56,858 nt of DNA from Klebsiella phage vB_KpnS-Carvaje, in the sequence record NC_071011.1. The stretch is one strand, 5' to 3'. The notes beneath the pieces were generated by a model. It worked only from the letters and a program-made list of their open reading frames with translations. It was not told where the DNA came from and searched no databases. How positions within the stretch are numbered: the stretch's first letter is position 1; every line of letters begins with the position of its first letter. Position numbers and translations under genes: made by a program. Positions 3,379 to 20,581 of this stretch are shown one piece after another.

Positions 3379-3739
3379 CTCTTTACATACTTTGCATCAT
3401 TCGTAGTATCAGCGGCCTTACCGCAGCACGTATTTGAAGTAACGAATAGTCAGGGAACAAGCGTTCCATTTCAGACCATACTTCATTTGCATTATTTTTA
3501 ACGCGACAAAGGCGGACCATCGCCATTTGCATTTCTGCTTCATCATCTTGTGTTTTACTCACGATCAGTAACCCCTCTTCGACTGGTATTCAATTTTGTT
3601 CAGTGTGTTTTGCACGATCTGCCATGAGCGCATCATGAACAACGATGCATACTGTGATAACAAGACACAACGCGGCTGAACACTGTACGCGGTAATCGTG
3701 TCCATATCATCAGGTGTCAGGAGGAAACGCCAGGGTGAG

Positions 3740-3931
3740 TTATTCATGTTCAAGTCGTCCCAGCAGTTCGCGGATGTTCTGCAGAACGTATTGCTTTGTC
3801 TGCGTCGTTACACAAACACCATCGGTACGCCCGAACGTGTCCAGCACCGTTTGAAGCGCGTGTTTCAGTTCGATATATTCCGTGACAGGTATAGAAACCA
3901 TCACCACTAATTTTCCGTCAATGTTAGCCAT
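3740..3931 (-). CDS. hypothetical protein
   Basis: 63-aa ORF. Confidence 0.3.
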   Translation of the reverse strand: MANIDGKLVVMVSIPVTEYIELKHALQTVLDTFGRTDGVCVTTQTKQYVLQNIRELLGRLEHE

Positions 3932-4328: not shown

Positions 4329-6092
4329 ATGAATAAATTCGCTGGCAACATTCACAAGTACCCGCGCTGGCGGGACGCTTACGCAGAAGATGAACGGATC
4401 TGGCGCAAAGGTGAATCACGGCCTGATTATCGTCAGTGTTACATCGACCGTATCAACCTGATAAACCGTATGCGCACCGATCGGGCGATCATTCCGGTAC
4501 TGAAAAAGTATTACGAAACTAACCCGGTGGCGTTCATCCTCGACTGGGCGTTTACTTATGACCCGCGTAACGTTGGTACGGAATACCCGCCGAATATGCC
4601 GTTCTGCCTGTTTGAGCGCCAGATCGACATGATTCAGTTCGTTTATGAAGCGCTCGAAGATAAAGAAAAAGGATTGTGGGAAAAATCCCGCGACTATGGC
4701 GCAACGTGGGTTGCCTGTGGGTTATCCGTGTGGGCCTGGCTCTATCGTCCCGGTTCATCAGTTGGCTGGGGGTCACGTAAAGAAACGCTCGTTGATAAAC
4801 TGGGGGATCCTGACAGTATTTTTGAAAAAATCCGTCAGATTATCCGTGCTCTGCCTCCTGAATTACGCCCGGTTGGTTACCGTGAAAAAGATCACCTGAC
4901 ATTCATGAAATGTATCAACCCTGAAAACGGTGCAACAATCACGGGTGAGGCCGGGGATAACATCGGGCGCGGTGGTCGTAAGTCAATTTATTTTCTCGAT
5001 GAGGCTGCACACGTTGATCGCCCTGAACTGATAGAAGCGTCATTGTCAGCTAACACCAACGTTCGTATCGATATCAGTTCTGTTAACGGTGTCGGCAACG
5101 TTTTTTATCGTAACCGTAAAGCAGGTATTGAATGGGAGCCGGGTAAGAAAATACCCCGTGGTAAATTGCGCGTTATGGTTCTGGACTGGCGCGATCACCC
5201 GGCGAAAGATGATGAATGGTATAAGCGCGAAAAACAATCATTCGCTGAAAAAGGATTACAGCATATTTTCGCACAGGAAGTTGACCGCGATTACGCTGCA
5301 GCCGTTCAGGGTGTACTCATTAAAGCTGAATGGGCGCGGGCCGCATTCGATGCGTTCAAAGATATCGCGTGGCGTAAAGCAAACGGTCTGCTTGCACCAA
5401 CAGGTAAACGCATTGCCGGGCAAGATGCCGCAGACGGTGGTGAAGATGCGAGCGCACTGGTTGTTGCTCATGGTGTATTTATCACTCATTTGCAACTTGA
5501 TCACCGCAGCGCTGAACTGGCCGCACCTGGTATGCTCAATGCTGCGAACATGATCGGTGTTGATGAATACTGGTATGAAGTGAATGGCGTGGGTGCTGGC
5601 GTTAAAGTAGCGGCTAACGATCGTAAGGATACGTTGCGGTTCCGTGTTCGTCCGTGGCTACCGAACGGAAAAGTAGTCAATCCTGGCGGTGATATTATTG
5701 GTGGAACGATACCAGGCGATAAAGACCGTAAAACGAACAAAGATTATTTCAGCAACTATAAAGCACAAGCGTCATGGGCGCTGCGTATGCGTTGCCAGAG
5801 AATTTATAAATGGTACGTTGAAGGTCAACCACAGGATCCTGATGAGATTATTCTGATTGATCCAACAATGGAAAACGCGCAGCATCTTGAGGCGGAACTA
5901 TGTCAGCCAACGTATAGCACTAATGGTGCGGGGAAAATCGTTATTGATAAAAAACCAAATGGTTCTAAATCACCTAACTTTTTCGACGCAACCGTTATTG
6001 CTACATCACCGAAGCGCGTAGAATTCGAGGAAGAAGCGTTTACAGGTACAGTAAACGCTGTTGGAACACCAGATTACGGGAGTATATTCTAA
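4329..6092 (+). CDS. terL: terminase large subunit
   Basis: 587 aa; Walker-B-like YFLDEAAHV, C-terminal RNaseH-like acidic residues (DEYWYEVNGVGAGV); sits between the terS region and the portal gene. Confidence 0.65.
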   Translation: MNKFAGNIHKYPRWRDAYAEDERIWRKGESRPDYRQCYIDRINLINRMRTDRAIIPVLKKYYETNPVAFILDWAFTYDPRNVGTEYPPNMPFCLFERQIDMIQFVYEALEDKEKGLWEKSRDYGATWVACGLSVWAWLYRPGSSVGWGSRKETLVDKLGDPDSIFEKIRQIIRALPPELRPVGYREKDHLTFMKCINPENGATITGEAGDNIGRGGRKSIYFLDEAAHVDRPELIEASLSANTNVRIDISSVNGVGNVFYRNRKAGIEWEPGKKIPRGKLRVMVLDWRDHPAKDDEWYKREKQSFAEKGLQHIFAQEVDRDYAAAVQGVLIKAEWARAAFDAFKDIAWRKANGLLAPTGKRIAGQDAADGGEDASALVVAHGVFITHLQLDHRSAELAAPGMLNAANMIGVDEYWYEVNGVGAGVKVAANDRKDTLRFRVRPWLPNGKVVNPGGDIIGGTIPGDKDRKTNKDYFSNYKAQASWALRMRCQRIYKWYVEGQPQDPDEIILIDPTMENAQHLEAELCQPTYSTNGAGKIVIDKKPNGSKSPNFFDATVIATSPKRVEFEEEAFTGTVNAVGTPDYGSIF

Positions 6093-19316: not shown

Positions 19317-19345
19317 AGGGGTGGCTAACGCTGCCCCTTTTGCTT
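19317..19345 (+). terminator. stem-loop / leaky terminator after the MCP gene
   Basis: AGGGGTGGC-taac-GCTGCCCCT (9 bp including two G-U pairs) followed by TTTGCTT. Confidence 0.45.
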
Positions 19346-19359
19346 ATGTGAGGTTTATC

Positions 19360-19722
19360 ATGAAAAAGAACGAATTTGATCCGTCAGCCACATATCGGTT
19401 TACACGCCCTATGAAATGGAACGGTAAATATGTTGGTACGGGCGATTTATTACCCGATGATGGTACACCGATCGGAATCCTGCGTTCCCTGTTTAAGATG
19501 CGTCAGATTGAACTGGCTGACGGTTCGGAACCGGAACAGCAACCGGAACAGCAACCGGAACAGCAACCGGAACAGCCTGGCGCAGTAGCTGAAATCCGTA
19601 ATGAAGGTTCTGGCTGGTACAACGTCTACATGGGTGGGATGCTGATTAGCGAGAAGAAATTACGCAAAGATGATGCTGAAAAATGGTGTGAAGAAAAAGG
19701 TTTGACTTACAATATTTCTTAA
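19360..19722 (+). CDS. hypothetical protein with (PEQQ)4 repeat
   Basis: 120 aa from ATG 19360 (RBS GAGG); contains EPEQQPEQQPEQQPEQP. Confidence 0.45.
   Translation: MKKNEFDPSATYRFTRPMKWNGKYVGTGDLLPDDGTPIGILRSLFKMRQIELADGSEPEQQPEQQPEQQPEQPGAVAEIRNEGSGWYNVYMGGMLISEKKLRKDDAEKWCEEKGLTYNIS
19531..19578 (+). repeat. 12-bp tandem repeat x4 (CCGGAACAGCAA) encoding (PEQQ)n
   Basis: Read directly. Confidence 0.8.
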
Positions 19723-20119
19723 CATATTGTTAGTTCAAGGCGACGATGATTAGATAGAACTGCATAGCAGACGCTGTTGAAAACCCTAGCCTTTAATCGG
19801 TCACCGTGTGTGACGCTGGATAAACGTAACCAGCAACTATCAGGTAAGGGCGCTATTAGGTAGCTTCAGGGGACATGCCCGCACAGGTGACGACTTATGC
19901 GCAAAAATACATGTGGTAAGGCTTGAAGTGCTCTTTCCGATAGTTTTCGTGGCGACTTTGCTGGCTTTTTAGAAACTGACCACAAAGATAAATGCAAACG
20001 AAGAAATGTATCTGGCAGTAGCCTAACAGCTAAACACCAGTGAGGTATTCCAGTTCCTCATCAACGAATCTGGCGCACTGGCCCGGTGTGATTAATAATG
20101 GGCGCACAACAGGTAAGAA

Positions 20120-20184
20120 CACTGACAGGTGGATGTTCGTAGCGCTGCGTAACTTTAGATGGGTTCGAGTCCCATACAGTGTTC
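20120..20184 (+). other. tRNA-like remnant: canonical T-arm plus partial acceptor stem, no complete cloverleaf found
   Basis: ATGGG-TTCGAGT-CCCAT at 20159..20175 followed by ACAGTGT, which is near-complementary to upstream ACACTGA; D and anticodon arms could not be built. Confidence 0.25.
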
Positions 20185-20298
20185 TTTCCGTTGTGGTGAA
20201 GTATAAGATGGCAGTGCTGATGAATCGGGGACATCAAAACCCTTGATCCGGGTCTTATGGGGACGGAAACAACGCGACTTCAGCCACCACAACACCCC

Positions 20299-20386
20299 GG
20301 ATAGTTGGCTGAGAGGCCGAAAGCAGTCGGTTGCTAACCGATAAACCGGAAACGGTTCACAGGTTCGAATCCTGTACTATCCGCCA
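20299..20386 (+). tRNA. tRNA-Ser(GCU), type II with long variable arm, CCA encoded
   Basis: Manual cloverleaf: acceptor GGATAGT/ACTATCC; D-arm GCT-GAGAGGCCGAA-AGC; anticodon arm GTCGG-TTGCTAA-CCGAT (anticodon GCT); variable-arm hairpin ACCG-gaaa-CGGT; T-arm ACAGG-TTCGAAT-CCTGT; discriminator G, CCA. Architecture is near-identical to E. coli tRNA-Ser(GCU). Confidence 0.85.
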
Positions 20387-20514
20387 AATCAGCGAATCAC
20401 ACCGACGGGAGGTGATCGCTATCTTGCTGGCGGGCAAGCCGCAAAGCGTGGGTAAAGCACGTTGTGAAACGTCCTGAACTGCGTAAAGAATTAACCCAGA
20501 GCCAAGCAATCGTT

Positions 20515-20541
20515 AGCCGTCTGTTTAAGACGGCTTTTTTT
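20515..20541 (+). terminator. rho-independent terminator closing the non-coding RNA island
   Basis: AGCCGTCT-gttta-AGACGGCT followed by TTTTTTT. Confidence 0.75.
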
Positions 20542-20581
20542 CGTGCTAAAATAATGAAAACTATTCTATACAGGTGACCAC

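Follow-up and report, generated by a model that had tools for sequence, protein, structure and literature searches.

Trans-translation is the main bacterial ribosome-rescue pathway, and some phages need it. The one-piece transfer-messenger RNA (tmRNA) of Escherichia coli, SsrA (RF00023), is 363 nucleotides (nt) long; in the two-piece tmRNAs of Beta- and Alphaproteobacteria and cyanobacteria (RF01850 and RF04321), a separate coding piece needs an acceptor RNA. Here, we describe a phage element of ~165 nt that combines a tmRNA-like message with an arm antisense to host tmRNA. This element, which we call module A (positions 19941 to 20103), belongs to an island of 859 bp (19723 to 20581) in Klebsiella phage vB_KpnS-Carvaje (NC_071011.1), whose 56,858-nt sequence was analyzed as a whole and is referred to as the window; all features described are on the plus strand. 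An initial annotation, made from the letters alone, had set out an island of about 860 bp without a credible open reading frame (ORF), which is borne out: the ORFs are all short (the longest is 68 amino acids), overlap on both strands, and none is supported. It had also left some 575 bp upstream of a T-arm unexplained. That region indeed has no credible ORF, but it holds module A, which had been missed.

Like one-piece tmRNA, module A has a GCA resume codon preceded by U(−5)A(−4), a tag that starts with AND and ends in a hydrophobic, alanine-rich C terminus, a stop codon in the loop of helix 5, H-type pseudoknots after the tag, and a location among transfer RNA (tRNA) genes. Unlike one-piece tmRNA, it has no tRNA-like domain (TLD), no G3:U70 acceptor, and no CCA, and no pseudoknot 1 was found; it adds the antisense arm, scores below the Rfam thresholds, and is not called by ARAGORN. 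With two-piece tmRNAs it shares the separate coding piece that needs an acceptor RNA, an identical resume context (AUAAAUGCAAACGA), and similar tags (ANDxxFLMAA). The two pieces of those tmRNAs, however, come from one gene and pair via the acceptor stem and helix 2, whereas the partner of the phage element would be the complete host tmRNA, bound in antisense to its message region.

Published surveys place phage tmRNAs only in mycobacteriophages (complete in Bxz1-like phages), in Bacillus phage G, and in DS6A, where the form is TLD-only and inhibitory, and they list no enterobacterial phage (PMC4131195). These RNAs are likewise phage-borne derivatives of trans-translation RNAs, and the DS6A form is thought to interfere with host tmRNA (PMC4131195). 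All of them keep the TLD, and the message is missing from DS6A; module A is the converse, a message without a TLD, plus an antisense arm. A 2025 database update relied on detectors that require a TLD. Antisense oligonucleotides to ssrA are used in ribosome display. In cell-free systems, such oligonucleotides suppress the release of stalled chains, and they are antisense to the same stretch of tmRNA as the phage arm, comprising the resume codon and the first tag codons (PMC3384345); they are, however, man-made DNA and carry no surrogate message. Neither the element nor its tag peptides nor any phage anti-tmRNA RNA appeared in the literature that we searched, our coverage of which was incomplete, and nothing relevant came up on tmRNA-like or ssrA-like elements of phages. 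To our knowledge, no virus reprograms trans-translation through a tmRNA-pairing RNA, and no described system combines a tmRNA-type message with an antisense RNA. The module RNA is in part like a tmRNA message and in part like an antisense RNA, and it is a member of neither the tmRNAs, the two-piece tmRNAs, nor the Y RNAs; the island core is a widespread phage RNA that has apparently not been described.

A tmRNA-like message shared by unrelated phages

A megablast search with the island matched 225 phage records, the widely shared part being 19939 to 20295 only, and a more sensitive search with 19900 to 20298 as the query matched 743. The hosts of the matched phages include Salmonella, Escherichia, Klebsiella, Shigella, Erwinia, Citrobacter, and Serratia, and the core is carried by unrelated phage types, such as Felix O1-like phages, Vi01-like Ackermannviridae, N4-like Schitoviridae, Drexlerviridae, Roufvirus, T1-like phages, and P1/P7. 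Matches were also present in 822 of 5426 complete E. coli genomes, with 731 of the 883 matched places on plasmids (P1-type among them) and the rest on chromosomes. When module A was compared with E. coli genomes by blastn, the matches were prophage and P1-type plasmid copies; ssrA was not matched because the helices are too short for blastn. The shared core lies in or beside a tRNA cluster, on the tRNA strand and unannotated, in nearly every locus inspected. In some records, a coding sequence for a "hypothetical protein" spans the module on the opposite strand, such as AEPG_00055 of phage pIS4-A (locus L003, 2085 to 2372) and gp130 of Escherichia phage AYO145A (L006, 1986 to 2126); these are probably misannotations of the RNA gene, and many further records are likely to contain similar ones. 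Hundreds of phage genomes in the databases carry the element either unannotated or as a wrong-strand "hypothetical protein."

At Rfam gathering thresholds, the island contains a tRNA only, and single-sequence folding was uninformative (z = +0.69 for 19930 to 20298 and −0.11 for 19723 to 19940). We take the island to be more than a chance arrangement because its core is conserved in hundreds of unrelated phages and because its base pairs covary strongly. The initial annotation had suggested that the remainder of this noncoding island could encode small RNAs, and structured RNAs are indeed encoded there, as described below. Of the Infernal/Rfam scan that it proposed, the tRNA came back above its gathering score and everything else below threshold.

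To characterize the message portion of module A, alignments of 13 and then 35 distinct homologues were used. The resume context, (A/G)UAAAU followed by GCAAACGA, is invariant in the 35 sequences, and U(−5) and A(−4), the equivalents of tmRNA U85 and A86, are kept, as expected of a tmRNA resume codon. In tmRNA, U85/A86 set the reading frame, the choice of frame depends on the local upstream sequence, and both the tag template and the pseudoknots are replaceable (PMC2481249). The phage tag frame is exactly 10 codons long in all 25 distinct nucleotide variants, while the other two frames vary in length; the encoded tags have the form AN[DE]x..[LM][AM][VAS]A, end at TAA, TAG, or TGA, and have no in-frame start codon. 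The tag is ANEEMYLAVA in the window, ANDNTFLAVA in Vi01-like phages, ANDNVFLAVA in Felix O1-like phages, ANDDVVLMAA in N4-like phages, ANDDLMLMAA in the T1-like phage CS01, and ANDDLMMAAA in P7. Synonymous changes make up 54% of the single-nucleotide codon differences among the 25 variants in the tag frame, versus 5% and 15% for the two alternative frames; within tag codons, variability is highest at the third position. This synonymous excess and third-position variability are the signature of a translated sequence. Like a tmRNA tag, the sequence is a short ORF that lacks a start codon, has a hydrophobic, alanine-rich C terminus, and places its stop codon in a hairpin loop. The resume 14-mer AUAAAUGCAAACGA is also common to genuine two-piece tmRNAs on IMG/VR contigs, with tags ANDNAFLMAA and ANDERFLMAA; ARAGORN reports these as "tmRNA*," and they score 124 to 130 bits with Rfam. 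In an E-value scan of the island, tmRNA_permuted was the top Rfam match (19912 to 20026; 21.7 bits against a gathering score of 47), and the tmRNA model matched the T-arm and 19984 to 20046 below threshold. The homologous element in four other phage loci gave tmRNA-family matches of 25.7 to 29.2 bits, again below the gathering score of 47.

The helix-5-like hairpin and the two H-type pseudoknots of module A (Table 1) are supported by covariation. The outer stem of the hairpin is 100% paired and shows a compensatory G-C/A-U switch, and its inner stem also covaries. In pseudoknot a, stem S1 is 100% paired with three compensatory pairs, and S2 is 94 to 96% paired, with compensatory changes at 3 of 4 pairs. 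In pseudoknot b, S1 is 98% paired with two compensatory pairs, the loop GAUUAAUAA is invariant, and S2 varies in length and sequence while its complementarity stays. Across the hairpin and both pseudoknots, 93.0% of cells in the 35 sequences are paired, versus 36 to 51% when the partners are slid; 14 of the 26 pairs show compensatory changes, and none of 500 shuffles reached the observed values. This layout is that of the messenger RNA-like domain of a tmRNA.

A TLD was not found. ARAGORN, run on the window and on 12 related phage loci, called no tmRNA, and a search for a standard or permuted tmRNA topology revealed no G3:U70/CCA acceptor closing module A. The module begins at a promoter or a stalk with the arm GAUAGUUUUCG and has no acceptor strand. 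In a genuine two-piece example (L051), by comparison, an acceptor piece (T-arm, 3′ acceptor strand, and CCA) lies upstream of a coding piece that opens with the 5′ acceptor strand GGGG. A near-consensus sigma-70 promoter, with a strong TTGACA, lies immediately 5′ of module A in phages of the Roufvirus-like and Felix O1-like types; the RNA would therefore start a few nucleotides before the conserved GUUUUCG, which leaves no room for a 5′ acceptor strand. A G3:U70 tRNA-like element of Felix O1-like phages was considered as the TLD of module A and rejected, because a sister phage has an ordinary tRNA-Arg(UCU) at that position. In AYO145A, an unannotated, D-armless tRNA-like gene lies ~40 nt after module A (2165 to 2243), with the acceptor CGGGGCG/CGCCUCG (G3:U70), A73, CCA, and the anticodon loop CUUCUAA; it scores 31.7 bits with the Rfam tRNA model and is not called by ARAGORN, and its slot holds an ordinary tRNA-Arg(UCU) in the sister phage L124.

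Complementarity of the module A arm to host tmRNA

The 5′ portion of module A is complementary to host tmRNA. We assessed this by collinear local alignment against 500 shuffles, using an E. coli tmRNA sequence confirmed by ARAGORN; this test superseded RNAduplex on whole sequences, which was noisy (median z = −2.5). The window arm reads 5′-UAGUUUUCGU-GG-GCGAC-UUUGCUGGCUUUUUA-3′ (19941 to 19971). Its first segment, TAGTTTTCGT (19941 to 19950), pairs with ACGAAAACUA, which is tag codons 3 to 6 of tmRNA; GCGAC (19952 to 19956) pairs with GUCGC, which spans the resume codon; and TTTGCTGGCTTTTTA (19957 to 19971) pairs with UAAAAAGCCGCAAA, the 3′ strand of pseudoknot 1 and the linker. Aligned with nt 57 to 106 of E. 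coli tmRNA, the reverse complement of the arm scores 41.5, versus 17.4 ± 2.9 for shuffles (z = 8.3), and RNAduplex gives −38.3 kcal/mol for the pair. Scores for 33 distinct arms range from 25 to 50, versus ~18 ± 3 for shuffles (median z = 6.9), and 29 of the 33 beat all 500 shuffles.

This signal is specific to the arm and to the antisense orientation. In the window, it is confined to 19936 to 19980; scores against tmRNA are at background in both orientations for the leader, the heads of the two cassettes, the message portion, module C, and the tail, as they are for the arms in the sense orientation and for the equivalent upstream regions of genuine tmRNA genes. All 33 arms score higher against host tmRNA than against their own message (median, 38.5 versus 16). 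Since it does not pair with its own message, the arm is trans-acting rather than half of an internal hairpin. RNAalifold finds no consensus pair within the arm, though its sequence is strongly conserved. Complementarity beyond chance is therefore located in an unstructured region, as in an antisense RNA.

Sampling of 115 gammaproteobacterial tmRNAs from species genomes showed the target to be near-invariant, which explains the invariant GUUUUCG in the phages. Different phage lineages cover different subsets of the target; the arms of Felix O1-like and Erwinia phages also pair with AAAAUAG, and the versions of the module in Erwinia and Serratia phages retain the arm. In two distant members, L033 and L079, UUGUUCG replaces GUUUUCG and the tag has 13 residues (ANDDSFEVARLAA). 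Their arms fit tmRNAs with GAC GAA CAA UAC (the ANDEQY type of Pasteurellaceae and Photorhabdus) better than that of E. coli, with scores of 37 to 39 versus 29, and suggest a host tmRNA of the Pasteurellaceae type. The L033 member (5427 to 5640) begins 2 nt after the CCA of a tRNA-Arg(UCU), and the contig of L079 has an identifier that resembles those of Human Microbiome Project samples. From the complementarity of the arms, we consider it likely that the module A RNA targets host tmRNA.

Proposed docking on host tmRNA

The explanation that we favor, at slightly better than even confidence, has the RNA docking on host tmRNA, where it would mask the host message and offer a surrogate template for the tag. 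Under this model, the island would be a noncoding RNA operon, bounded by the promoter-like site (19702) and the terminator (20515) and processed into several RNAs. The RNA from 19941 to 20103 would be a chimera of a single-stranded 5′ anti-tmRNA arm and a tmRNA-like message and would borrow the TLD of the host. Docking on alanyl-tmRNA-SmpB would mask the host resume codon, the first tag codons, and part of pseudoknot 1 and would offer the phage resume codon ~20 nt beyond the duplex. Ribosomes rescued by the alanyl-tmRNA-SmpB of the host would then read the phage frame and add the phage tag (tag switching). The stalk cassettes (including a T-arm minihelix) and tRNA-Ser, described below, would be cotranscribed accessory RNAs. 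The tRNA-like elements would probably double as RNase P-type processing signals for the release of the module at its ends, and the tRNA-like heads with their stalks may be processing signals or scaffolds from which neighboring RNAs are set free. Whether the module A RNA also supplies a translated surrogate tag, in addition to targeting tmRNA, we judge to be close to evenly balanced.

Such a mechanism is plausible because the tag template and pseudoknots of tmRNA are replaceable and its frame is set by local upstream sequence (PMC2481249), because natural two-piece tmRNAs carry the message on a separate RNA, and because oligonucleotides antisense to this part of tmRNA stop it from acting in cell-free systems (PMC3384345). 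In P7, where tRNA-Asn and tRNA-Thr follow it, the element lies directly 3′ of Op(ban), an operator controlled by C1, and expression is therefore expected on lytic induction. An altered tag might differ in degron strength or adaptor binding or might relieve the load on proteases.

Several points weigh against this model. The evidence is computational throughout, and docking in vivo, the ability of a ribosome to load a message that is tethered in trans, and translation of the phage tag with its consequence are steps that we infer from it. The similarity of the message to E. coli tmRNA in the sense orientation is not significant alone, and descent from tmRNA is not proven; the best non-tRNA Rfam matches, although they are tmRNA families, are all below threshold; and the aligned loci were partly chosen via the 14-mer at the resume codon. 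No pseudoknot-1-like structure was found 5′ of the resume codon, where the RNAalifold consensus has 0 pairs. Helix I of most arms contains a mismatch or a bulge, and its formation needs pseudoknot 1 of the host to be opened. Covariation between phage and host comes from one distant lineage, whose host we can only infer, as Enterobacterales tmRNA is too conserved. Finally, module A is dispensable, being absent from the 98%-identical relative phi_KPN_H2.

The antisense complementarity would serve a pure inhibitor equally well. The arm would then block trans-translation or ssrA tagging, and the message half would be untranslated and act structurally or as a protein decoy (for example, of SmpB, S1, or RNase R). 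In vitro, tmRNA can indeed be blocked with antisense oligonucleotides (PMC3384345), the TLD-only phage tmRNA of the DS6A type is reported to inhibit tmRNA (PMC4131195), and module A has no TLD or pseudoknot 1 to guide ribosome loading. The codon-type constraint on the tag argues against an inhibitor alone: the length is held at 10 codons, synonymous changes are in excess in that frame only, the C terminus stays hydrophobic and alanine-rich, and TAA, TAG, and TGA are interchangeable. Moreover, the frame-setting U(−5)A(−4) is invariant, and a pure decoy needs neither a frame context nor a tag. We regard this alternative, the main one, as unlikely.

If the surrogate-tag model is correct, phages would have a novel means of seizing or disabling a core quality-control system, the message of tmRNA could act in trans, and the degradation tag would be a point of host-phage conflict. 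The classic model phages P1/P7, Felix O1, and Vi01 carry the element, which makes the model directly testable, and so do phage-therapy candidates, including Klebsiella and Salmonella phages.

Stalk cassettes, tRNA-Ser, and other features of the island

Module A is flanked by two stalk cassettes (Table 1). The stalk of cassette 2 (91 nt), CACAAC-A-GG-T-AAGAACACTG ... CAGTGTTCTT-T-CC-GTTGTG, comprises an outer helix (CACAAC/GUUGUG), a bulged A, GG/CC pairs, a U.U mismatch, and an inner helix (AAGAACACUG/CAGUGUUCUU). That of cassette 1, AACTATC-A-GG-T-AAGGGCGCT ... AGTGCTCTT-T-CC-GATAGTT, carries a head unrelated to that of cassette 2. In 31 cassettes, which were picked by conserved motifs with a mild selection bias, the 17-bp stalk is 98.9% paired, versus 39 to 63% when slid, with compensatory changes at 9 of the 17 pairs (reached by 0 of 500 shuffles). 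The G.U wobbles of the stalk fit plus-strand RNA only, and one stalk position is U.G in 25 of the 31 cassettes. The heads, by comparison, are hypervariable: ~36 cassettes hold 33 distinct inserts of 13 to 91 nt that form 25 unrelated families, and heads differ even between phages that are >95% identical. Six heads, in four families, contain T-loops. The stalks with their variable heads could be processing sites, protein scaffolds, or a display of antisense or decoy heads.

The head of cassette 2 consists of an acceptor-like stem (20119 to 20124/20177 to 20182), a GG-containing loop, a hairpin (20135 to 20153), and a T-arm (20159 to 20175). The initial annotation had recognized this T-arm as canonical, rightly so: its T-loop, GGTTCGAGTCC (20162 to 20172), is one of two perfect matches in the 56.9-kb window, the other being that of tRNA-Ser. 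It had also considered the T-arm to be a possible relic of a decayed tRNA, which does not fit the maintained, covarying 91-nt cassette in which it sits. Compared with the copies of VLCpiS10a and Salmonella phage SP-076, the hairpin and acceptor-like stem show covariation, and the minihelix is therefore maintained rather than decayed; the "remnant" is a stalk-mounted tRNA mimic. It has A3-U70 instead of G3:U70, lacks CCA, runs on into the stalk, and resembles the TLD of host tmRNA in the T-loop only, so that it is neither a tRNA nor a tmRNA TLD; ARAGORN does not call it. A weak Rfam match to the mascRNA model (20141 to 20183) is below threshold. In being a stalk-mounted tRNA mimic, the T-arm cassette resembles MALAT1-mascRNA-type processing signals and the YrlA Y RNAs. 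However, YrlA has the order T-arm, closed acceptor-like stem, and D-arm and a GNCGAAN0-1G motif (PMC4201824), whereas cassette 2 has the order 5′ acceptor strand, loop, hairpin, T-arm, and 3′ acceptor strand and lacks the motif. We rejected a Y RNA assignment on these grounds and because no YrlA or Y RNA match was found in Rfam at E values up to 10.

A T-arm minihelix lies beside module A, on either side, in ~12 of 37 loci, its 5′ half (CUGACAGGUGGAUGUUCGU) resembles the 5′ end of two-piece coding pieces (GGGGCUGACAAGGUUUCGAC), and tmRNA_permuted is the top Rfam match of the island. These observations would suit a self-contained phage tmRNA, two-piece or permuted, that is independent of the host, with the T-arm cassette as its TLD and module A as its coding piece. 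We nevertheless find this very improbable. Neither the window nor the 12 related loci yielded an ARAGORN tmRNA, and the acceptor-like stem, with its A3-U70 pair, missing CCA, and extension into the 17-bp stalk, has no host TLD similarity beyond the T-loop. In addition, the T-arm cassette is absent from most module A loci and belongs to at least five unrelated sequence families, and the antisense arm would be left unexplained.

Phages that are >95% identical in the flanks of the island differ by entire modules. The closest annotated relative, VLCpiS10a, has the T-arm cassette, module A, another cassette, module C, and tRNA-Ser; KP13-27 has the T-arm cassette, module A, and further cassettes without tRNA-Ser; and phi_KPN_H2 has a different cassette, module C, and tRNA-Ser without module A or the T-arm cassette. 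The T-arm cassette is upstream of module A in VLCpiS10a, KP13-27, and SP-076 and absent in other relatives, and the head of cassette 1 recurs right after module A in Roufvirus-like Klebsiella phages. Because close relatives differ by whole modules and this head recurs, we consider the modules to be exchangeable accessory genes with breakpoints at shared stalk or linker sequences. Such breakpoints, and the presence of the same cassettes at different positions and in different genera, would also be expected of a DNA-level feature, in which the inverted repeats are recombination linkers or ends resembling miniature inverted-repeat transposable elements (MITEs) and the tmRNA likeness is a captured, decaying ssrA fragment. 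This reading is marginally less probable still, as the G.U wobbles fit plus-strand RNA only, compensatory changes keep pairing and not sequence, codon-level purifying selection acts on the tag, and the arm keeps its match to host tmRNA but not to its own message. Shuffling at the linkers may, however, be the route by which modules spread. As a reading of the stalk itself, an integron attC site or MITE was also rejected: the core sites misfit GTTRRRY, and the strand-specific G.U wobbles and compensatory changes point to RNA.

Only tentatively, and with less confidence than in the docking model itself, do we extend it to enterobacterial phages generally. In that case, P1/P7 and Felix O1-, Vi01-, N4-, T1-, and 9NA-like phages would encode a trans-acting surrogate-message RNA that silences the host tag and forms a host-virus two-piece tmRNA, and the stalks with hypervariable heads would be a second, separate, undescribed modular RNA system.

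Module C has a predicted stem, GTTGTGGTG(AAG)/(CTTCAGC)CACCACAAC, around a structured insert, with a conserved frame and a variable interior. It is conserved in VLCpiS10a, phi_KPN_H2, and Roufvirus-like phages, and a variant frame is found in many phages, including P7, in each case just 5′ of a tRNA-Ser-like gene. This position is seen in the window, VLCpiS10a, KP591P1, and P7. The sequence CUGAUGA...GAAAC within module C was considered as a hammerhead and rejected; stem II is unformed, a common variant lacks the core, and Rfam gives no match. GTTGTG at 20190 to 20195 can pair either with CACAAC at 20105 to 20110, in the T-arm cassette, or with that at 20288 to 20293, in module C, the two pairings being mutually exclusive; in EC1-UPM, the downstream partner covaries (ATTGTG/CACAAT).

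The single tRNA that ARAGORN calls in the whole window is tRNA-Ser(GCU), at 20299 to 20386 and with an encoded CCA, just as the initial annotation had placed it. It scores 57.5 bits with RF00005 (gathering score, 29), has a 14-nt variable-arm insertion and the anticodon loop UUGCUAA, and is a class II tRNA by its long variable arm, GCU anticodon, and GCCA ending at 20386; the annotations of relatives also call this gene tRNA-Ser. Its loops had been described as nearly identical to those of E. coli serV. This did not hold up, since blastn finds no similarity to E. coli tRNA-Ser genes and only a 30-nt T-arm match to a tRNA-Lys; the loop residues common to this tRNA and serV are generic tRNA features. 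The suggestion that the tRNA supports AGC/AGU decoding is likewise weak. AGY codons account for 38% of Ser codons in the window ORFs (AGT, 22%; AGC, 16%) and are not raised overall; given that AGY makes up ~43% of Ser codons in E. coli, only AGU is enriched. The tRNA-Ser is an ordinary one. Least probable of all, then, is that the island amounts to an AGY-decoding tRNA, a decayed second tRNA, and a leader and trailer with perhaps some generic small RNAs, because, although the tRNA-Ser is genuine and phage tRNA clusters are common and accompany the element, the "remnant" and the sequence 5′ of it show RNA covariation and are conserved in phage families that are unrelated, AGY usage is not raised overall, and KP13-27 keeps the RNA modules without tRNA-Ser.

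P1 and P7 are usually described with three tRNAs. In P7 (L004), we found an unannotated tRNA-Ser(UGA)-like gene (3546 to 3633), which ARAGORN calls and which scores 46.6 bits with the Rfam tRNA-Sec model; it directly follows a module-C-type element, mirroring the order of module C and tRNA-Ser in the window. The same tRNA and noncoding RNA operon of P7 contains a near-threshold match to the enterobacterial small RNA family STnc100 (3743 to 3858; 43 bits against a gathering score of 47).

Table 1. Predicted and supported features of the vB_KpnS-Carvaje island, in window positions
Feature	Positions	Strand	Details or basis
Sigma-70-like promoter, predicted	19702..19730	+	TTGACT-17-TATTGT, 9/12 matches; consensus scan only
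5′ leader	19723..19834	+	
Cassette 1 (stalk and 72-nt variable head)	19835..19945	+	Stalk covariation
Anti-tmRNA arm	19941..19976	+	Collinear reverse-complement alignment to E. coli tmRNA
Linker and frame-setting context	19977..19993	+	(A/G)UAAAU directly 5′ of resume codon, invariant
Tag reading frame	19994..20026	+	GCA resume codon, 10 codons (ANEEMYLAVA), then TAA
Helix-5-like hairpin, stop codon in loop	20012..20040	+	Covariation
H-type pseudoknot a	20041..20073	+	S1 20041-45/20056-60; S2 20050-53/20070-73
H-type pseudoknot b	20074..20103	+	S1 20074-78/20086-90; S2 20081-84/20100-03
Cassette 2 (stalk and tRNA-like minihelix)	20105..20195	+	Covariation
Module C	20190..20293	+	Predicted long-range stem around structured insert
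tRNA-Ser(GCU), class II, CCA encoded	20299..20386	+	ARAGORN, Rfam
3′ tail	20387..20514	+	
Intrinsic terminator	20515..20545	+	Terminator scan; 8-bp stem, 5 G-C pairs, T-run

The location of the island in the head module, as first annotated, is the same in VLCpiS10a, where the order is major head protein, hypothetical gene, island, head closure, neck, and tail terminator. In the window, the 5′ neighbor is the gene after the major capsid gene, and the 3′ neighbors are head-tail joining genes. The leader (19725 to 19795) shares 97 to 99% identity with its counterparts in phi_KPN_H2, KP13-27, and VLCpiS10a and 85% with that in Salmonella phage 9NA; it has no Rfam match. The 3′ tail is 95 to 98% conserved in relatives, including KP13-27, which itself lacks tRNA-Ser; it matches no Rfam family at the gathering score and contains only very short ORFs. 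A strong terminator had been predicted from 20515, and the terminator scan agrees, finding a terminator-like hairpin at 20515 to 20535 followed by a T-run.

Among the minor observations, the tail contains a possible 21-codon ORF with a GTG start at 20412, preceded by GGGAGG; another ORF, of 37 codons (20464 to 20577), reads through the terminator. The ORF after the capsid gene (19321 to 19722) carries a PEQQ repeat (EPEQQPEQQPEQQPEQP), and the corresponding gene varies in length, being annotated at 351 to 447 nt in KP13-27, phi_KPN_H2, and VLCpiS10a.

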